Shown: positions 11,038 through 60,573 of the stretch, piece by piece
Numbering within the stretch: position 1 is the stretch's first letter
Layout of the letters: each line of letters begins with the position of its first letter
Origin: a virus
DNA: 64,000 nucleotides
IMG/VR virus record: IMGVR_UViG_3300028800_002449
Direction: 5' to 3' (one strand)
Made by a program: the position numbers and the translations under genes
The notes under the pieces: model-generated
Database searches by the model: none
Seen by the model: the letters and a program-made list of their open reading frames with translations, nothing else
Told to the model about the DNA's origin: nothing

Positions 11038-11586
11038 TCAGAAATGTGACCTCAAGAATCTTCTCAGATGCGTGCCCACGAGGACGGCATCTGCCTTGGG
11101 ATGAACGTCGAGGCGGCTCCTGATGTTGCTCGCCTGACAGAGCCATCCCGCGCCGTGGATCTTCCGCGCATCTTCGAAAGACTCCTTCTTCAGTCCTCCC
11201 GTCGACAAGTCGCGACTGTTCCACACTACCCTTTGACGACTCGGCATGAGGTTCATCTGTCGGAGGGAAGTCGGTTCGAGGATGCACTTCGGCATCAGCT
11301 CATAGTGTGGAACTCGTCCCACGACCAAGACGTAGTCGGCCCCGCAACCGAGAGCCGCTCGAACCTCTTCGTCGCTGTCGTGGATTCCCTTCGCGAGGAT
11401 GGGCTTGTTCGTCTGCTTCCTCGCCCTGTAGAGATGGTGGAAGGAACCACCCCACCGCGGGTCCGTATGGATCGACAGCCAGTCACCGGCTTCGCTCGCG
11501 AGGTGGAAGAGGGCTTCCCAGCTCTCCTTGCTCTCCCAGCCGAAGGGCGAGCACGTCTTCACCTCGGCGATAAGAATATGACTCAT
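11038..11586 (-). CDS. indole-3-glycerol-phosphate synthase (TrpC)-like (beta/alpha)8 barrel protein
   Basis: IAEVKTCSPFGW (the TrpC IAExK.aSPSkG motif), LSIHTDPRWGGSF, ILAKGIHDSDEEVRAALGCGADYVLVVGR; trimmed from track ORF 11038..11856, whose 5' part runs into tRNAs. Confidence 0.55.
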   Translation of the reverse strand: MSHILIAEVKTCSPFGWESKESWEALFHLASEAGDWLSIHTDPRWGGSFHHLYRARKQTNKPILAKGIHDSDEEVRAALGCGADYVLVVGRVPHYELMPKCILEPTSLRQMNLMPSRQRVVWNSRDLSTGGLKKESFEDARKIHGAGWLCQASNIRSRLDVHPKADAVLVGTHLRRFLRSHF

Positions 11587-11590
11587 CTCG

Positions 11591-11663
11591 TACGCACGGA
11601 GGGACTCGAACCCTCGATGTCCCGGATGTGAGCCGGGTGCCTTAGCCGCTAGACGACGTGCGC
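11591..11663 (-). tRNA. tRNA-Val(CAC)
   Basis: Anticodon arm CCCGG-CTCACAT-CCGGG; T-arm GAGGG-TTCGAGT-CCCTC. Confidence 0.7.
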
Positions 11664-11675
11664 ATAACAGTTTCG

Positions 11676-11747
11676 TGCGAGCGGCAGGGATCGAACCTGC
11701 GACCCCTTCGATGTCACCGAAGTGCTCTTCCGCTGAGCTACGCTCGC
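11676..11747 (-). tRNA. tRNA-Val(GAC)
   Basis: Anticodon arm CTTCG-GTGACAT-CGAAG; T-arm GCAGG-TTCGATC-CCTGC. Confidence 0.7.
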
Positions 11748-11795
11748 AATATCTGACCTCGACATCATAGTGGATGACGTCGTAATCACGAAGCT

Positions 11796-11871
11796 TGGTC
11801 AGACCGGCGGGACTCGAACCCGCGACCTCATCTTCCCCAAAGATGCGCGCTACCAACTGCGCTACGGCCTG
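11796..11871 (-). tRNA. tRNA-Pro(GGG), genomically encoded CCA
   Basis: Anticodon arm CATCT-TTGGGGA-AGATG; 3' end CGGTCTG-A-CCA. Confidence 0.75.
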
Positions 11872-24149: not shown

Positions 24150-25586
24150 ATGAACAACAACTACGATCCCATGGCGAACCTCATCGCCGACTCCGACAGC
24201 TACAAGTTCGGCCACTGGCTCATGCTGCCCGACGGCACCACGCAGACGCACGCGCACATGCTCTCCCGCGGCGGGCGCTACGGCCGCACCACTCAGTGGG
24301 GCATGCGCCCCATCACCATCCGCATGGCCCAGTGGGCGGAACTCACCACGAAGGAGCGCATGCTCCACGTCGAGGAGTGCGCCGACTTCGCCCCCGACCA
24401 CGGGCTGCCCTTCAACATCGACGACTGGACGTACATCGCCACCGACCTCGGCGGTCGCATCCCCATGCGCATCCGCGCCGCCAAGGAGGGCGCCTCCATC
24501 CCCGTCCGCAACGTGCTTTCCACCTACGACTCGACGGACAAGCGCGTGCCGTGGATCACCGGCTGGTTCGAGACGCAGTTCGTCCGCGCCTGGGCCGGCA
24601 CCACCGTCGCCACCAAGTCGTTCAACGGCGTCAAGGTCTTCTGGGACTTCCTCAAGGAGACCTCCGACGACCCGGCGGGCGAGATCGACTTCAAGCTGCA
24701 CGACTTCGGCTCGCGCGGCGTCACCTGCCCGCAGCAGGCCGCCTTCAACGGCGCCGCCCACCTCGTCAACAGCAAGGGCAGCGACACCGTCATCGCCATG
24801 CTCTACGCCAAGAACGTCTACGGCACCAAGGAGAAGGTCGCCGGCTACAGCATCCCCGCGCTGGAGCACTCGTCGGTCATCCCCTTCAAGGACCAAGAGG
24901 AGTCCTTCATCCGCTTCATCGAGAAGTTCAAGGACCCGAAGTTCAAGTACCTCTCGGCGATCTCCGACACGATCGACATCTACGACTGCGTCGAGAACAT
25001 CTGGTGCGGCACGATGCTCGACCTCGTGAAGGCCAGCGGCAAGACGATCGTCATCCGCCCCGACTCGGGCAAGGCCCCCGTCATCATGCCCGACCTCCTG
25101 CACATCATGGACAGGAAGATCGGCTGCACCACCAACGGGAAGGGCTTCAAGGTCCTGCCGCCCTACTACCGCTTCATCTGGGGCGACGGCAACAAGACGG
25201 AGGACGACATCAGGGACATGCTCATGTCGATCAAGCAGCACGGCTTCTCGGCGTCGAACATGGTCTCGGGCATGGGCGGCGGCTTGCTCCAGCTCGTCGA
25301 TCGCGACATGCAGATGTTCAAGTTCATGGTCTCCGCCATGAACATCAACGGCTCCTGGAGGGAGGTCAAGAAGACGCCGAAGACCGACGTCCACAAGGTC
25401 TCCCGAGCCGGACGGCTCGACCTCATCAAGCGCGAGGGCCAGTACGAGACCGTCAACCTGACGGCAGACCAGGCGTTCCACCCGCTCACCGAGCTTCACA
25501 CCATCTTCGAGGACGGCAAGATCGGCAAGACCTGGGACCTGGACGAGAGCCGCGCCGAGTCCCGTCGCGCCCTCCTCGAAACGTAG
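24150..25586 (+). CDS. nadV: nicotinamide phosphoribosyltransferase (NadV/NAMPT family)
   Basis: About 478 aa; NAMPT-type N-terminus DSYKFGHW and family-typical length; ribosome-binding site AGGAAAGGAAG; start re-called inside track ORF 23748..25586. Confidence 0.8.
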   Translation: MNNNYDPMANLIADSDSYKFGHWLMLPDGTTQTHAHMLSRGGRYGRTTQWGMRPITIRMAQWAELTTKERMLHVEECADFAPDHGLPFNIDDWTYIATDLGGRIPMRIRAAKEGASIPVRNVLSTYDSTDKRVPWITGWFETQFVRAWAGTTVATKSFNGVKVFWDFLKETSDDPAGEIDFKLHDFGSRGVTCPQQAAFNGAAHLVNSKGSDTVIAMLYAKNVYGTKEKVAGYSIPALEHSSVIPFKDQEESFIRFIEKFKDPKFKYLSAISDTIDIYDCVENIWCGTMLDLVKASGKTIVIRPDSGKAPVIMPDLLHIMDRKIGCTTNGKGFKVLPPYYRFIWGDGNKTEDDIRDMLMSIKQHGFSASNMVSGMGGGLLQLVDRDMQMFKFMVSAMNINGSWREVKKTPKTDVHKVSRAGRLDLIKREGQYETVNLTADQAFHPLTELHTIFEDGKIGKTWDLDESRAESRRALLET

Positions 25587-28253: not shown

Positions 28254-28457
28254 GCAGGTTGAGCAGCTCGAAGCGTTGATGGACGAACAGGTCCCGAGCG
28301 CTCTTCAACGTGCTGCGTCCGACTCCAGGAAGACGTCAGCCACATGGGTCGGCTCGGGCGACTTCCTCGTGCTCCTCGTCTGCGACGCCACGTCGGCCAT
28401 CAAGCCCACCCAGAAGCGCTACACCTGCCGGATCCTCGACCTCAAGGAGAAGTGAAA

Positions 28458-29675
28458 GTGGCAACTAGATCTGAAAGTGGCAACTCAACTCTTCAAGAGA
28501 TCCTCCTCACCGGCAAGACCGACCTATACGTCGTCGCCACCGGAGCGGGGACGAACCTGCTCACGAGCCTCTGGGCCACCCCCGGTGCCAGCGCCTACCT
28601 CAAGGGATTCCACTTCCCCTACGACACGGCCGAGACCGACTCGTTCCTCGGCTTTCAACCGGCGGCCTACTGCACCGAGAAGACTGCGATCTTGATGGCC
28701 ACCGAGGCCTACGTCAGGGCTCGTCGCCTCCACTACCTCCGCGGGGAAGATCGCAACGCCGCCACCGTCGGGCGGAAAGCCATCGGGCTCGCCGTGACGG
28801 CCTCCGTCGCTTCCATGACGGAGCATCGTGGAGAGCACCGTGCCTTCATCGCCACCGTCAGCAACCACACGCCTCCGACCTTCACCTCAAAGAAGATCGG
28901 TCTTCAGAAGGGCGTCGGTCTCTTCACGCGCATGAGTGACGACGCAATCGTCTCACATGCAGCCATGGAAGAGTTGTCCCAGACCCTGCGCGACGAGGCC
29001 TACTCGGTGCCCAACTACACTGAAGATCAGGTCATAGAGATGCTTTTCGAGCATCCATATCCTCTCGGGCACGAAGGCTACAGCCTCCGGAACGACAAAG
29101 TCGTCTTCATCCCTGGCAACTTCAATCCTCTGCATCAATGTCACCAGTCGATGGGACAGACGTTGAGGTCGCTCTACGGCTACAAGCCCGTCTACACGAT
29201 CTGCGTGGACCCCCCGCACAAGCCCGCCCTCGCCCTCGTCGACATGCTCGACAGGGTCGCGATGTTTCGCGCGCTCGCGCCACATGCCGCTCTCCTCTTC
29301 ACCAGGAAGGATCCTCTCTTCATCGACAAAATGAAGGCCCGCCCCAGCTCGACGTGGGCCGTCGGCGGCGACACGCTCGATCGCCTCCTCGATCCGAAGT
29401 GGGGCCCGTCTACGGACGAGGTCTGCGACGTCATCAAGGAGACCGATTCGACCATCTACTTGTTCCCTTCGAAGCACGGTGAAGCTTCCATCGATGCGCA
29501 CTCCATCTTCAGGAAATACACGTCCGACAAGCTTGCCCAACTCATGCACAAGAAGATCCTTGGCGTCGACGTGGATCTTCCTGAGATCCGCTCCTCCGCC
29601 ATCAGGGCAGCCGCGATGAACCCGCCACCCTTCGACATCCACGAGCTGGACGCCGGCTCCGAACCCCGGAGATGA
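28458..29675 (+). CDS. fusion protein: CinA-C/PncC-like (NMN amidohydrolase fold) N-domain plus NMN/NaMN adenylyltransferase-like C-domain
   Basis: N-terminal ATGAGTNLLTSLWATPGASAYLKGFHFPYDTAE resembles the PncC AESCTGGLLA..LT..PGSSAYFLGGVVAYSNEAK block. C-terminal FIPGNFNPLHQCH carries the HxGH nucleotidyltransferase motif. GTG start after GAAGTGAAA. Confidence 0.6.
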   Translation: MATRSESGNSTLQEILLTGKTDLYVVATGAGTNLLTSLWATPGASAYLKGFHFPYDTAETDSFLGFQPAAYCTEKTAILMATEAYVRARRLHYLRGEDRNAATVGRKAIGLAVTASVASMTEHRGEHRAFIATVSNHTPPTFTSKKIGLQKGVGLFTRMSDDAIVSHAAMEELSQTLRDEAYSVPNYTEDQVIEMLFEHPYPLGHEGYSLRNDKVVFIPGNFNPLHQCHQSMGQTLRSLYGYKPVYTICVDPPHKPALALVDMLDRVAMFRALAPHAALLFTRKDPLFIDKMKARPSSTWAVGGDTLDRLLDPKWGPSTDEVCDVIKETDSTIYLFPSKHGEASIDAHSIFRKYTSDKLAQLMHKKILGVDVDLPEIRSSAIRAAAMNPPPFDIHELDAGSEPRR

Positions 29676-31957
29676 CGACCACCCCCGATCGCGCTCAGAT
29701 CATCGTCGCCGAGCGCGACCAGAAGACGAGACAGAACACGTCGGACTCGCCGGTCCGCGGTCGGTGGTACCTCGTCAAGAACGGCGACAAGGACGACGAC
29801 CTCGACGTCGACAAGATCGAGAAGGATGTCGACGACTTCTCATACCGCACGTCGGTCACCGAGGAAGACGTAGTTGCAGCTGAGAAAGCCGGCGGTTGGA
29901 TCGGATGCGTCACCCACGTCGGCAGCAACTACGTGGAGGTCAAGGGTCCCTCAGATAGCACCGGGATGTTCGTCACGCGCATCCACTACGAGAACTTCTG
30001 GCGCCGATGCTCTCCCATAGACGACTCCGACCTCATCATCGACGGGAAGATCTCCCGCTACCAAGACCAGACACGCAAGCTCATGGCCGAGGTCAAGGCC
30101 CTCACGGCCAAACTCGGCGTAGCCCCTCGGCAGGAGATCGCAGACGGGTCAGAATCGGAGGTCAAGGCGATCTCGATCCGAAGCTCCGAGCCCGTCGAGG
30201 AGTACAAGAAGGCCCTCATCAAGGCCGAGGAGAAGACACTCCCCGACCTCTTCGAGAAGATCGAGGAGTCGAACGCGATGATGAGCACGTGGATGAAGGC
30301 CAAGATCATCCCGCTCGAAGCCGAATCGGAAGCGCTCAAGGACACCGTCGGGCTCGTCAAAGATCGCATCTTCAGCGTCGAGCTTTACGCAGGCCTCGTC
30401 GAGAAGGTCGTGCGCGTGCGCGACGGCAAGCCGGCCGAAAACGACGCGCAGGTTCACCTCATGCAGCGCCGCGCCTACATGGACGAGGAGTGCCTCGTCG
30501 GCTACGAGACGGGCGGCATGGACTACCAGAACATCGAAGACTTCGACAAGTGGCTCTGCAAGCCGGCCAACTTCCAGCGTCTGCTTCCCTACCCCAAAAC
30601 CTTCATCGCCTTCCAAGTCCGCCGTGAGAAGAAAGAGCGCGAGGCCTCCTCGTGGGGCGAGTACGTCCAGGTCATGGCTCAGGAGAAGGCTGACGAGTCG
30701 ACATACCTCTACGTCCGGAACGGTGAGCAGCTCTATCGCATCAAGACGAAGATCGAGTTCGAGGAGCAGCTCTTCCCCGACACCAACAACAAGATCTTCT
30801 CCAGCAGCAAGCTGTGGGCGAACATCTTCATGAACACCGTCAAGGACATCATCAGCGACGAGGAATTCCAGGGGAAGCTCGAAGACTACCTGGAAGACCA
30901 GAAGCGTCTGAAGAAGATCCCCAAGAAAGATCGGTGGCATTCAAGTCAACACGACGACCCTCGCGAGCGCTACCACCCGCTCACGCAGGACAACGTCTAC
31001 TACGACGACATCATGGCCGTGCTCAACGCCGAGAAGAAGAAGCACAACCGCCTCGTGCTCGTCATGCAGGGCCTCCTCGACCGATCGCCTGTCCTCCATC
31101 CACACCCACCCTGGCAGCTGTGGACGCACGAGGGGTTCAACGCAGCCTTCAAGCTCGTCTACGACGGCACGAGGGCTCTGTCGGCCGGAGACAAGCCCGA
31201 CTTCGAAGCGTATCGCGCGAAGCTCAACGCTCATCTCACGACAGGATCCGTGACCGTCGGTCAGGAGATCTCGTGGCTCCGTCGCGAGGCCGAGCGAGTC
31301 AACCGCGAGAGAGAAAACAGCCCTCACCGTCACCCGTCCGACCGCGAGTACAATCTCTATCGACCATCACACGATCCTGGTCCCGGCAAGCTCGCCATCG
31401 TCGACAGGTACTCGGAGAGCAAGCGAGCTTGCACCTACCGATGGGTGCGCAAGAACCGTCACTACCCCTACGAAAAGGACGTGAACACGTCTCTCACGAC
31501 CGGCGAAGAGAACCTCCTGAACGTCGACGCATACAAGCCCGGCGACTTTCACGTCTTCTTCGACGACCCCCGTACTCGACTCGAATACCTGAGGTGGGCT
31601 CCGATCCTCCTTGAGGCCGAGGAGTGTCATGCGGGCAACCGCAAGATCAAGCCTTGCAAGAGGCTGCCACCCGTCCAGCGTCATCCCAAGCCCGTCGACC
31701 CTCAGATCGATCCGCGACCCGCCGATCTCGACTTCAAGGAGAAGCCGCCGAAGCCCCCCATCGAGGACAAGTACCTCGGCAAGCGCGCCACCATCAACTT
31801 CGACTTCGAGACGAGGGCGAACGACAAGTTCAAGAAGGGCGAACTCGTCATCATCACCAGCTACCACAGGCGAAAAGTCGACGTCACTTCCGCCAAGGAC
31901 AAGGACAAGCGCTGCCATCACCTCGAACTCAACTGGATCACCCTCACCGGAGAATGA
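29672..31957 (+). CDS. large hypothetical protein (761 aa), translationally coupled to the PncC-NMNAT fusion
   Basis: ATGA overlap at 29672; no recognisable catalytic motif; coiled-coil and Lys/Pro-rich C-terminal region. Confidence 0.55.
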   Translation: MTTTPDRAQIIVAERDQKTRQNTSDSPVRGRWYLVKNGDKDDDLDVDKIEKDVDDFSYRTSVTEEDVVAAEKAGGWIGCVTHVGSNYVEVKGPSDSTGMFVTRIHYENFWRRCSPIDDSDLIIDGKISRYQDQTRKLMAEVKALTAKLGVAPRQEIADGSESEVKAISIRSSEPVEEYKKALIKAEEKTLPDLFEKIEESNAMMSTWMKAKIIPLEAESEALKDTVGLVKDRIFSVELYAGLVEKVVRVRDGKPAENDAQVHLMQRRAYMDEECLVGYETGGMDYQNIEDFDKWLCKPANFQRLLPYPKTFIAFQVRREKKEREASSWGEYVQVMAQEKADESTYLYVRNGEQLYRIKTKIEFEEQLFPDTNNKIFSSSKLWANIFMNTVKDIISDEEFQGKLEDYLEDQKRLKKIPKKDRWHSSQHDDPRERYHPLTQDNVYYDDIMAVLNAEKKKHNRLVLVMQGLLDRSPVLHPHPPWQLWTHEGFNAAFKLVYDGTRALSAGDKPDFEAYRAKLNAHLTTGSVTVGQEISWLRREAERVNRERENSPHRHPSDREYNLYRPSHDPGPGKLAIVDRYSESKRACTYRWVRKNRHYPYEKDVNTSLTTGEENLLNVDAYKPGDFHVFFDDPRTRLEYLRWAPILLEAEECHAGNRKIKPCKRLPPVQRHPKPVDPQIDPRPADLDFKEKPPKPPIEDKYLGKRATINFDFETRANDKFKKGELVIITSYHRRKVDVTSAKDKDKRCHHLELNWITLTGE

Positions 31958-32745: not shown

Positions 32746-33522
32746 ATGAACATCACCCGCGTATCCATCAGCGGTGCCGACGACGCCATCGATCCGATCG
32801 ACCTCCTGCGGCTCTCGGTCGAGTTCCCCTTCGTCGAGTGGGGGATCCTCTACTCAGAGAAGCGTCAAGGGACGCCTCGATACCCGTCGGCAGAGTGGCG
32901 CGAGAACCTCATCGGCCTGCTGCTCAACACGGTCAAGGGGAAGAACCTTCACCTGGCGCTCCACCTCTGCGGCAAGGCCTCTCGCGACGTCTTCGAGGGC
33001 AGGGACAGCAAGTGGTTCGCGAGGAAGGACTTCCACGCACCCTACGAGCGCGTCCAGCTGAACGGCTTTTCACCCTACAAGGACAAGCTGAAGTACCTGC
33101 CACTCAACAGCGACCCGTACGACAAGGATCAGCTCGCCAACCTCTTCAAATTCTGCCCGTGCGAGTTCATCGTCCAGTGTGCCGACGAGGAAGAACTCAA
33201 GATCGTCGACGACTTCGCCGTCAAGAACAACCTCCAGTTCCTGAACGCGCTCTACGATCCTTCCGGCGGCAGGGGCCTCAGGAACGTCGAATGGCCGCAC
33301 CTGCCGACCAGGCAGGTCAACGTCGGCTATGCGGGCGGCATCGGTCCCGACAACGTCTCCCAGATCGTCTCCGACATCATGGGCAAGCCGAAGACGGACA
33401 AGATGGAGGCCACCTGGATCGACATGGAGAGCCGCATCCGGTCCAACGAAGACAAATTCGACCTCGCGCTCGTCAGAGAAGTCCTCGTCGCCTGCATGAA
33501 GCTCGTCGGAGGTGAGAAGTGA
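32746..33522 (+). CDS. phosphoribosylanthranilate isomerase (TrpF)-like (beta/alpha)8 barrel protein
   Basis: ITRVSISGADDAI...FVEWGIL, VQLNG, NVGYAGGIGPDNVSQIV align with the TrpF blocks ICGIT..DA..A...GAD..GF, VQLHG and ILAGGLNPENV. Confidence 0.55.
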   Translation: MNITRVSISGADDAIDPIDLLRLSVEFPFVEWGILYSEKRQGTPRYPSAEWRENLIGLLLNTVKGKNLHLALHLCGKASRDVFEGRDSKWFARKDFHAPYERVQLNGFSPYKDKLKYLPLNSDPYDKDQLANLFKFCPCEFIVQCADEEELKIVDDFAVKNNLQFLNALYDPSGGRGLRNVEWPHLPTRQVNVGYAGGIGPDNVSQIVSDIMGKPKTDKMEATWIDMESRIRSNEDKFDLALVREVLVACMKLVGGEK

Positions 33523-34070
33523 AGGACCGCATCTGCATGTACCCCGGCACGTTCGGTCCGATCACGCTCGGCCACGAGTGGATCATCGCGGAGTCTCTCA
33601 AGATCTTCGACTACGTCCACGTCCTCATCGCCGAGAACAAGGCCAAGAAGCCGATCTTCAGCATGAACGAACGCCTCTCCATGATCGAGAGCGTCACCAA
33701 CAAGTACGGCGGCAAGGTCGAGGTCGTGAAGAGCCACGACGTCTACACTGTGCAAGCAGCCAAGATCCTGAAGGCCACACACATCGTCCGAGGTATCCGC
33801 AGCGGCATCGACTTCGACTACGAGCGCAGCGTCGATCTGCTCAACAGGGACATCCACAACGCCCTTCGTGAAGACGAGTCAGCCAGCCATGGCGTGTCCA
33901 CCATCTACATGACTCCTCCACGACACCTGGCCGAGGTCAGCTCTTCCATGGCCATGAGCCTCGTAGGGTTCAAAGGGTGGGAGACCGTCATCAAGAACTA
34001 CGTCTCTCAGCCTGTTTTCGAAGCCATCAAGAAGGCCTATGATGGCGGCCACCTCGCCAACCGACCATGA
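33519..34070 (+). CDS. CoaD-like (phosphopantetheine adenylyltransferase family) nucleotidyltransferase
   Basis: MYPGTFGPITLGH (PPAT signature YPGSFDPIT.GH) and VRGIRSGIDFDYERSVDLLNR (PPAT IRGLR...DFEYE...MN). Confidence 0.6.
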   Translation: MKDRICMYPGTFGPITLGHEWIIAESLKIFDYVHVLIAENKAKKPIFSMNERLSMIESVTNKYGGKVEVVKSHDVYTVQAAKILKATHIVRGIRSGIDFDYERSVDLLNRDIHNALREDESASHGVSTIYMTPPRHLAEVSSSMAMSLVGFKGWETVIKNYVSQPVFEAIKKAYDGGHLANRP

Positions 34071-60195: not shown

Positions 60196-60573
60196 ATGTC
60201 TAAGCACCAGCTCGACGTTCTCTGGAACGTGTTCGGCTGGGTCGCCGCGATGCTCAACGTCGTCGGCAACCTTACGCTCGTCACCAAGAGCAAGATCGGA
60301 TGGGTCATCCGAATCATCGTCAACCTGTTGTGGATGCCCTACGGCATCTACACGTCTGCGTGGGCCCTCTGCGCCAACCACATGATGTTCGTCGGCATCA
60401 ACGCCTACGGGTGGTTGAAATGGACCCGCGACGAGAGACGCGAGGCGAGCATCGTCACGCCCGGCGAGACGCCGAAGACCAGCGCCCATGAGAAGTCTCG
60501 ACGGCTCGCCTACGTAGACGGGTTCAAAGCCGGACGCATCGCCGAGCGGAAGACTGAAAGAAAAAGGCGATGA
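60196..60573 (+). CDS. small 3-4 transmembrane membrane protein, possibly a PnuC-like (nicotinamide riboside transporter) half-unit
   Basis: W/N-rich transmembrane pattern VFGWVAAMLNVVGNLTLVTKSKIGWVIRIIVNLLW; weak resemblance only. Confidence 0.35.
   Translation: MSKHQLDVLWNVFGWVAAMLNVVGNLTLVTKSKIGWVIRIIVNLLWMPYGIYTSAWALCANHMMFVGINAYGWLKWTRDERREASIVTPGETPKTSAHEKSRRLAYVDGFKAGRIAERKTERKRR

Follow-up and report, generated by a model that had tools for sequence, protein, structure and literature searches.

A lysine-less PncC-fold domain joined to a NadD/NMNAT-like adenylyltransferase, a probable partner of NAMPT in phage NAD+ rebuilding

The locus described here lies in a 64,000-nucleotide stretch of viral DNA (IMG/VR virus record IMGVR_UViG_3300028800_002449; hereafter, the window), and its central element is a gene for a two-domain protein of 405 amino acids (aa). 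The N-terminal domain (N-domain) has the fold of PncC, the nicotinamide mononucleotide (NMN) deamidase, that is, the CinA_C fold. The C-terminal domain (C-domain) resembles NadD and NMNAT, the adenylyltransferases of nicotinic acid mononucleotide (NaMN) and NMN. A gene for a nicotinamide phosphoribosyltransferase of the NAMPT/NadV family is located 2.9 kb upstream on the same strand; by sequence, the Nampt and Namat types are not separable here. The fusion protein is probably the adenylyltransferase partner of NAMPT and the last enzyme of a phage pathway that rebuilds nicotinamide adenine dinucleotide (NAD+). The more specific reading, to which we give somewhat better than an even chance, is that it would carry out the adenylyltransferase step of a phage nicotinamide salvage similar to NARP2, with the N-domain as a non-canonical, mononucleotide-binding partner.

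The open reading frame (ORF) of the fusion gene starts with a GTG codon at position 28458 and ends with a TGA codon at 29673-29675. This GTG is almost certainly the real start, because it is preceded, at about 9 nt, by a strong Shine-Dalgarno motif (AAGGAG), the upstream gene ends at 28455, and the N-termini of the homologues coincide with that of the resulting product. The same 405-aa product is called on a 260,244-bp ENA metagenome contig as well as on two short contigs. A longer ORF of 443 aa, which shares the stop at 29675 but begins with an ATG at 28344, was rejected because it overlaps the upstream gene. The TGA of the fusion gene overlaps the ATG of the next gene, so that the 761-aa product of the latter (29672-31957, plus strand), which has no match in Pfam or NCBIfam, is translationally coupled to the fusion gene via an ATGA overlap. 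The downstream gene is kept only in one syntenic relative (locus L006; 65% identity), where the homologue of the fusion protein is 57% identical; none of the other related loci has it. The window has a G+C content of about 60% and contains phage-type replication genes (SNF2 helicase, PolB exonuclease, ParB, Dam, and a RecD-like helicase), which, together with the 260-kb contig, indicate a jumbo phage.

Both domain assignments had been made in an initial annotation of this DNA, and both are borne out by profiles, Pfam, and structural matches. The PncC-like block on which it relied, TGAGTNLLTSLWATPGASAYLKGF, is present at aa 28-51 (nt 28539-28610), and the nucleotidyltransferase block, FIPGNFNPLHQCH, at aa 217-229 (nt 29106-29144). 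The resemblance of the N-terminal part to PncC was confirmed far beyond chance; its estimated size of roughly 230 aa was too large, the domain comprising about 170 aa. The AlphaFold2 model of the protein has a predicted local distance difference test score (pLDDT) of 90.2 and a predicted TM-score (pTM) of 0.89. Among solved structures, none matches both domains together, the highest query-normalised TM-score being 0.31. The features of the gene and of its NAD-related neighbours are collected in Table 1; the linker is also the point at which the gene is split in some phages. A search of PHROGs with the window protein returned no match, and a single-sequence search of the PDB sequences returned nothing significant, so that profiles were needed. 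The initial alignment comprised 44 homologues and the window protein (n = 45), and all conservation counts refer to 171 full-length family representatives, obtained by combining the first homologue search with an exhaustive profile search.

Table 1. Positions of the fusion gene, its domains and motifs, and NAD-related or adenylyltransferase-like neighbours in the window.
Feature	Position (nt)	Strand	Residues	Basis or remark
NrtR-like protein, Nudix and winged-helix	22658-23386	+		Pfam NUDIX, WHD_NrtR; NF050029 E 1e-48, below cutoff
NAMPT/NadV-family nicotinamide phosphoribosyltransferase	24150-25586	+		Pfam NAMPT_N and NAPRTase; NF006629 E 4e-121, 404.8 bits vs cutoff 405
Two-domain fusion gene	28458-29675	+	405 aa	PncC-fold domain, linker, NadD/NMNAT-like adenylyltransferase
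N-terminal CinA_C/PncC-fold domain	28491-28991	+	~12-178	
Equivalent of PncC ESCTGG	28539-28550	+	T28-G29-A30-G31	T28 at the Ser31 nucleophile position; residue-by-residue alignments
Equivalents of PncC phosphate-binding G46, S48, Y58	28581-28622	+	P42-G43-A44-S45 ... Y55	alignments
PncC catalytic-lysine position (K63 AtCinA, K301 TtCinA)	28635-28637	+	T60	alignments
PncC TGIAGP equivalent, then family-specific residues	28797-28841	+	T114-A-S-V-A-S, then E-H123-R124-G125-E-H127-R128	
Basic/acidic residues of the N-domain	28908-28940	+	K151 ... R158 ... D161	K151 and D161 family-specific; R158 the likely PncC R145/R377 equivalent, inferred
Inter-domain linker	28992-29096	+	179-213, ~35 aa	helix 189-196; pLDDT dip 201-210
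C-terminal NadD/NMNAT-type nucleotidyltransferase domain	29097-29627	+	~214-390	
(H/T)xGH ATP-binding signature	29133-29144	+	H226-Q-C-H229	sequence
NadD-type mononucleotide phosphate-binding motif (presumed)	29211-29222	+	P-P-H254-K255	sequence
GAD...W pyridine-ring stacking motif	29364-29405	+	G303-G-D305 ... W315-G316	sequence
ISSTxxR-type second ATP-binding signature	29586-29606	+	I-R-S379-S-A-I-R383	sequence
CoaD (phosphopantetheine adenylyltransferase)	33519-34070	+		CTP_transf_like; TIGR01510 130 bits vs cutoff 103

The assignment of the C-domain rests on several lines of evidence. Residues 218-384 of the window protein match the Pfam family CTP_transf_like (PF01467; E 1.2e-6, 29.2 bits vs a cutoff of 21), which was found in 41 of the 45 family members, and the family profile matches NadD of B. 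subtilis (1KAM, E 5e-8) and human NMNAT1 (E 2e-4). Structure comparison gave scores from 12.6 to 11.4 for NMNAT3, a fungal NMNAT, and several NadD enzymes, and 9.0 for phosphopantetheine adenylyltransferase (PPAT). Thus, the best matches by sequence and by structure are consistently NadD/NMNAT, not PPAT or cytidylyltransferases. With bacterial NadD (1KAM, 1K4K, 4RPI) and the eukaryotic NMNAT1-3 the identity is 13-18%, and the fusion differs from them by its extra N-terminal domain. The HxGH motif recognised in the initial annotation is present, and the residues of the C-domain motifs are near-invariant, namely H226 (168 of 171), H229 (171), K255 (169), G303 (170), D305 (168), W315 (168), S379 (170), and R383 (169). 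By the NCBIfam cutoffs, the C-domain is not an orthologue of canonical NadD; the N-terminal third of the NadD models is matched, by only the first ~60 residues of the domain, and the NadM models gave no match to the window protein. The sequence contains every signature that an active NMN/NaMN adenylyltransferase should have, and this activity is predicted for the phage protein.

For the N-domain, the Pfam family CinA (PF02464) is matched by 18 of the 45 family members, with a best E of 6e-6. The N-domain profile matches CinA of A. tumefaciens (AtCinA; 2A9S) with an E of 7e-5 (3e-4 for the whole-family profile), and an hhalign comparison with a profile of five PncC sequences yielded a probability of 88% and an E of 2.8e-6, only the first ~110 columns being credibly aligned. 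In the structure comparison, 2A9S reached a score of 17.1 (143 residues, 2.0 A), three other CinA/PncC structures reached 16-17, and HcgF (3WVA) reached 11.0. By structure, the N-domain has the CinA_C alpha/beta fold.

The active site of PncC has been characterized in detail. The nucleophile is Ser31, located within the ESCTGG block (PMC5384747, PMC4246079), and the general base is Lys63 (Lys301 in TtCinA), which was described as "absolutely conserved" (PMC4246079) and the replacement of which in AtCinA (K63A) left no detectable activity (PMC5384747). The phosphate of NMN is bound at the pocket entrance by the backbone of Gly46/Ser48, by Tyr58, and by Arg145, and the buried nicotinamide is surrounded by Thr105-Gly106 and backbone amides (PMC5384747, PMC4246079). 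A hidden Markov model (HMM) alignment to 2A9S and the profile-profile alignment to PncC agree residue for residue over the first half of the domain. They place E30, S31, C32, T33, and G34 of AtCinA at A27, T28, G29, A30, and G31 of the window protein, and G46, S48, Y58, and K63 at G43, S45, Y55, and T60. The Glu, Cys, and Thr of the ESCTGG block are, accordingly, not kept in the window protein, in which the block reads A-T-G-A-G.

The catalytic lysine, present in AtCinA (2A9S), TtCinA (4CT8/4UOC), and E. coli PncC, is absent in all members of the fusion family. Position 60 contains Thr in 101 representatives, Leu in 21, Ser in 17, Met in 10, Gln in 8, and Val in 5, and Lys in none of the 171; in 119 sampled bacterial relatives, it is always Leu. 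The suspicion voiced in the initial annotation that the N-domain is no ordinary NMN deamidase was, therefore, well founded. The conservation check of the catalytic pair that it had suggested gave a split answer: the lysine is lost, and the position of the serine retains a hydroxyl in 156 of the 171 sequences, mostly as Thr (T 138, S 18, A 10, C 3, V 1, N 1). The buried position 60 is the most variable of all equivalents of the PncC blocks, whereas the phosphate-side residues are near-invariant; the conserved PncC-side residues are G29 and G43 (171 of 171 each), S45 (169), and Y55 (170). Further conserved columns are T114 (144 of 171), the equivalent of T105/T340, G125 (168), and R158 (170), the equivalence of the last to R145 being deduced from the order of the motifs and not read from an alignment. 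In addition, the family has a set of residues without counterpart in PncC, comprising H123 (150 of 171), R124 (151, with Lys in 17 others), H127 (156), R128 (149), K151 (159), and D161 (151). The corresponding residues of the bacterial relatives are K123, H127, R128, K151, R158, and E161, together with T28. Compared with PncC, (A)TGAG takes the place of the ESCTGG block, the GP-loop contains HRGxHR and is shortened by about four residues, and Lys151 and Asp161 are new.

As read from these alignments, the N-domain has kept that half of the PncC pocket which binds the phosphoribosyl group (PGxS loop, Tyr55, and Arg158), and the residue that activates the amide chemistry is lost, its position having become variable. 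Judged from strand and loop topology, the extra basic and His residues would share a face of the domain with the PncC active-site blocks. By sequence, the N-domain is a PncC-fold homologue without the catalytic lysine by which PncC is defined, and its ligand is most likely a mononucleotide or a similar phosphoribosyl compound, which it would not deamidate in the canonical way. We favour such a non-deamidating accessory role because the lysine is gone in every member and the position on the amide side is the least conserved, because the phosphate-side residues are the most conserved, and because the domain is obligatorily paired with the adenylyltransferase, either fused or adjacent. That eight viral loci encode the two domains as separate adjacent ORFs suggests that the two work together.

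We propose the following mechanism, in which we infer the enzymatic activities, NMN or NaMN as the substrate, the contribution of the N-domain, and the anti-defence purpose. The upstream NAMPT/NadV would synthesize NMN from nicotinamide and phosphoribosyl pyrophosphate (PRPP). The C-domain would then transfer AMP from ATP onto the pyridine mononucleotide, yielding NAD+ or nicotinic acid adenine dinucleotide (NaAD), and NAD+ would thereby be restored in cells in which it had been cut by defence NADases. The N-domain would be an evolutionary derivative of the NMN deamidase PncC that gained a conserved basic/His cluster (H123, R124, H127, R128, K151, and D161) in the loops of the PncC active-site blocks, and it would serve as an obligatory partner of the adenylyltransferase, in substrate capture and hand-over or in regulation.

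To a large extent, the link to NAMPT comes from related viruses. A scan of IMG/VR yielded 63 loci, mostly on contigs of 50-510 kb, and HMM searches of their ORFs found both domains in 58 of them. In 8 of the 58 (6 distinct), the linker is interrupted and each domain has its own ORF, next to that of the other. Of the 58 loci, 34 have a NAMPT homologue at a distance of at most 10 kb, on the same strand in 32 of these and directly adjacent in 16. This linkage is far above chance, because there is at most one NAMPT per genome of 100-500 kb and the loci are independent and divergent. An NrtR-like gene is present in 10 of the 58 loci, and a Prs-like gene in 6 and in locus L004. Homologues with 33-36% identity on phage contigs of 450-550 kb share a NAMPT cluster with the order NrtR-like or Prs-like, NAMPT, a ~320-aa protein of unknown function, an adenylosuccinate-synthetase-like protein, a kinase-like protein, and the fusion, with NADAR following soon after. 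This extended cluster is represented by L004 (6590-10004), L005 (6325-10004), and L010 (6795-10004), and also by L028, L029, L031, and L032 (contigs of 100-550 kb); between NAMPT/NrtR and the fusion it contains the ~320-aa protein without a family match, a PF00709-like protein, and a protein of ~310-370 aa with a faint protein-kinase match, and NADAR lies just downstream.

Among 50,697 GenBank phage records, only one, an uncultured phage of 485 kb (LR745208), contains a homologue, and BFVD contains one full-length structural match, labelled "Cytidyltransferase-like domain containing protein". In locus L056 (9839-11227, on a 498,568-bp IMG/VR contig), the ORFs of the N- and C-domains are in frame and are separated by a single stop codon directly followed by Met; the gene may be truly split here, the stop may stem from a sequencing error, or a megaphage may recode it. 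Two-domain homologues also occur on contigs binned as giant-virus genomes (L033, L040, L046, L052, and L057; IMG/VR GVMAG contigs), for which mis-binning of phage contigs is possible; in L046 and L057, a NAMPT homologue adjoins them. A survey of 2022 reported no NAD+ salvage in eukaryotic viruses (PMC9503650).

The initial annotation had called the fusion unusual. On the contrary, the architecture is very common: searching with a member of the bacterial type (P0045) matched more than 6,218 bacterial clusters at 90% identity (E<=1e-10), many of which carry precomputed PF01467 and PF02464 assignments. The N-domain profile matches 3,235 representatives at 50% identity with E<=0.001, and 2,160 with E<=1e-10; nearly all of the best 150 matches have 340-420 aa, which is the length of the fused protein. 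A pattern-based contig scan with a smaller alignment retrieved three contigs of metagenome-assembled genomes via a narrow pattern and has little bearing on the bacterial distribution. The bacterial homologues are encoded on chromosomal contigs of up to 1.13 Mb, among ordinary metabolic genes. Their automatic names are "NMN deamidase PncC" or "NaMN adenylyltransferase/PncC" at JGI and, for one of them, "CinA family protein [Candidatus Limnocylindrales bacterium]" at NCBI. Our literature searches found no experimental or comparative paper on the fusion. Thus, it is common and already annotated automatically, yet uncharacterised as far as these searches show.

Several observations weigh against our proposal. 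Within the window, nine small ORFs separate the fusion gene from NAMPT, and 24 of the 58 viral loci have no NAMPT within 10 kb; next to the bacterial homologues on chromosomes, there are no genes related to NAD. The window protein gives no match to PF02464 at E<=1, and its scores remain below the NadD equivalog cutoffs of NCBIfam (TIGR00482, 22.9 vs 112.45 bits; NF000841, 22 vs 197). Furthermore, the conserved His, Lys, Asp, and Thr of the N-domain resemble a catalytic set more than a mere binding site, and their spatial arrangement was deduced from strand/loop topology only. The scores far below all NadD/NMNAT equivalog cutoffs and the loci without a nearby NAMPT, together with the fact that PPAT structures also match the family profile, would be in line with a protein outside NAD metabolism, the C-domain of which adenylylates or cytidylylates another phosphorylated substrate next to NAMPT by coincidence. 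We regard this as very unlikely, given that NadD/NMNAT, and neither PPAT nor the cytidylyltransferases, are the best matches, that the NadD-type mononucleotide motifs are present, that the partner domain derives from an NMN-binding enzyme, and that NAMPT is linked in 34 divergent loci, far above chance.

A further point against direct formation of NAD+ from NMN is that many NadD enzymes prefer NaMN over NMN, and the C-domain is NadD-like (PPHK). A possible NaMN preference would fit a deamidase followed by an adenylyltransferase better than the direct route. Indeed, the strongest rival to our proposal, which we consider possible although unlikely, is a sequential two-step enzyme, in which the N-domain would still be an NMN deamidase, with a relocated base, and the C-domain a NaMN-preferring NadD. 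In this enzyme, Thr28 or Thr114, with His127 or Lys151 and assisted by Asp161, would replace the Ser31-Lys63 dyad, and the route would lead from nicotinamide to NMN (NAMPT), NaMN (N-domain), NaAD (C-domain), and NAD+ (host NadE), as in Shewanella, for which NadD and NadE were reportedly described by Galeazzi in 2011 as completing the NadV-PncC route. The initial annotation had judged the combination of a deamidase with an NMNAT to be contradictory, but NadV, PncC, and NadD are consecutive steps of a known bacterial route (PMC3855486): in the known pyridine nucleotide cycle, NMN enters the NadD step by way of PncC, so that a PncC-NadD fusion beside NadV would represent three consecutive steps. 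S. oneidensis combines NadV with PncC (PMC3855486), and in many viral loci the order of genes and domains (NAMPT, PncC-like, NadD-like) is that of the pathway.

At the residue level, the hydroxyl at the nucleophile position in 156 and T114 in 144 of the 171 sequences, and the presence of H127, K151, and an acidic residue at position 161 throughout the phage and bacterial subfamilies, are consistent with such a rewired deamidase. The oxyanion hole, which in PncC is built of backbone amides, could persist (PMC5384747), and the C-domain has the NadD-type PPHK and GAD..W motifs. However, no member has the "absolutely conserved" lysine, and position 60, which lines the amide end of the pocket, is variable. 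Moreover, where position 28 has no hydroxyl (15 sequences), the H-R-H-R-K-R-D set is mostly still present, so that Thr28 does not behave as an essential nucleophile. In a counter-defence setting, the sequential route would also consume one more ATP and require an amidation. A NadE-like match was found in only 1 of 66 loci (L068, 3-581; tblastn E 2e-11, with an approximate E. coli NadE sequence as the query), which is a weak argument, also because the hosts have NadE anyway. On the same phage contig, of 424 kb, the fusion is encoded in split form about 9 kb away.

The initial annotation had suggested that the PncC-like domain might process ADP-ribose (ADPR) instead. In the form considered here, a new ligand specificity or activity would aim the N-domain at NAD+ cleavage products, so that it would bind or hydrolyse ADPR, cyclic ADPR-type immune signals, ADPR-PP, or PRPP/pyrophosphate, and the protein would couple the sensing or removal of such molecules to NAD+ resynthesis; we consider this improbable. 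The residues H123, R124, H127, R128, and K151 are located in the phosphate-side loops, their position at the pocket entrance being deduced from topology. Since in PncC the phosphate of NMN is bound at the pocket entrance (PMC4246079), extra basic residues at this side suggest a ligand with more than one phosphate, and the related megaphage clusters carry NADAR and Nudix/NrtR-like genes, which are ADPR-related. Even less, if only slightly, do we expect a version in which the lysine-less domain converts or senses a poly-phosphorylated molecule derived from NAD, as an enzyme or sensor of a new kind with HRGxHR/K/R/D as its working site. The elements of PncC that recognise the ribose phosphate are, however, kept unchanged, and the same domain occurs in thousands of chromosomal bacterial proteins without a defence or ADPR context, which argues for a housekeeping role in NAD biosynthesis over a function in immune signalling.

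The proposed salvage of nicotinamide has parallels in known systems. NAMPT together with NMNAT is an established phage counter-defence, NARP2 (bioRxiv 10.1101/2024.02.11.579819), and NARP2 as well as NadV and NatV of the Vibrio phage KVP40 likewise pair, at close distance in a phage genome, the gene of a nicotinamide phosphoribosyltransferase with that of an enzyme of the NMN adenylyltransferase type (bioRxiv 10.1101/2024.02.11.579819; PMC9503650). The expected outcome would also be that of NARP2, namely that NAD+ is rebuilt from nicotinamide. The enzymes differ, in that the KVP40 Nmnat, with which NARP2 is defined, is of the NadM type with a Nudix domain, whereas that of the window is NadD-like with a lysine-less PncC-fold partner, and the Nudix domain of the window is part of a separate NrtR-like winged-helix protein. 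A survey of viral NAD+ metabolism lists only NadV, NadM, and NadR (PMC9503650). The published catalogues of phage adenylyltransferases contain only NadM/NadR types; they rest on sequenced isolates, in which the present family is virtually absent, and earlier surveys of sequenced phages would, with a single homologue in the GenBank phage records, have missed it.

The Shewanella route of NadV, PncC, NadD, and NadE involves the same three families, NadV, PncC-like, and NadD-like, which are here arranged in pathway order (PMC3855486). In Shewanella, the enzymes are separate and PncC has the Ser-Lys dyad, whereas the PncC-like part of the fusion has no lysine, making a deamidation step in the phage route doubtful. 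Inactive CinA paralogues (E. coli YfaY; one- and two-domain classes) are also of the CinA_C type and lack NMN deamidase activity, and no function has been assigned to them (PMC3855486); they stand alone or are fused to MocF/COG1058, not to an adenylyltransferase. The archaeal HcgF (3WVA), which takes part in FeGP cofactor biosynthesis, is a CinA_C-like single domain with another active site, lacking an adenylyltransferase or an NAD context.

The order of the genes in this part of the window, all on the plus strand, is NrtR-like, an unknown gene of 242 aa, NAMPT, the nine small ORFs, the fusion, and the unknown 761-aa gene. The Nudix box of the NrtR-like protein is complete (GFLNLAESLDAAAFRELLEETG; GX5EX7REUXEEXG), and, by its sequence, this protein may be an active ADPR pyrophosphatase besides, or instead of, an ADPR-sensing repressor. 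The gene at 33519-34070 was considered as the true NMNAT and was rejected, since TIGR01510 identifies it as CoaD, that is, PPAT. It is the only other cytidylyltransferase-like gene in the window, and therefore the fusion is the sole NMNAT candidate beside NAMPT. CoaD is kept in the syntenic L006, and CoaD-like matches were found in 6 of the 58 related viral loci. A gene similar to Prs (Adps), as in NARP1 (Adps and Namat), where it would be next to the NAMPT-family gene, was not matched in the window. An ORF of 125 aa (60196-60573, plus strand) matches the first ~70 positions of PnuC/NMN_transporter (PF04973, E 1.3e-7); its product resembles a short or truncated nicotinamide-riboside transporter, it lies about 30 kb from the NAMPT module, and no NadR-like kinase was seen. 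NARP3 (PnuC and NadR) was checked and does not apply.

Other genes of the window include one for a 631-aa protein with a von Willebrand factor A domain (3405-5300, minus strand; PF13519, E 8e-8). Weak matches were found to PRAI/TrpF (32746-33522, plus strand; E 7e-5, 23.1 bits vs a cutoff of 22.7) and to IGPS/TrpC (11038-11856, minus strand; E 1.7e-8, 34.4 bits vs a cutoff of 27), that is, to TIM-barrel families of the tryptophan pathway that use phosphoribosyl or related substrates and are unexpected in a phage.

The rebuilding of NAD+ (NARP1, NARP2, and NARP3) is a recently recognised way in which phages escape NAD+-depleting immunity. If the fusion indeed completes nicotinamide salvage, many uncultured jumbo and mega phages would do so with a NadD-like enzyme that is always paired with a PncC-derived domain, and the known repertoire of NAD+ reconstitution would be extended to uncultured jumbo phages. 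If, instead, the N-domain acts on a poly-phosphorylated ligand, the protein would couple the detection or destruction of a product of defence NADases to NAD+ resynthesis, and its chemistry, as yet undiscovered, would be shared by the thousands of homologues in bacteria. Because the same two-domain protein is present in thousands of environmental bacteria, the function of the lysine-less PncC fold, whether it hands over substrate, regulates, deamidates by a rewired site, or performs new chemistry, is a gap in the map of NAD metabolism, and the answer could correct the widespread automatic annotation "NMN deamidase PncC".

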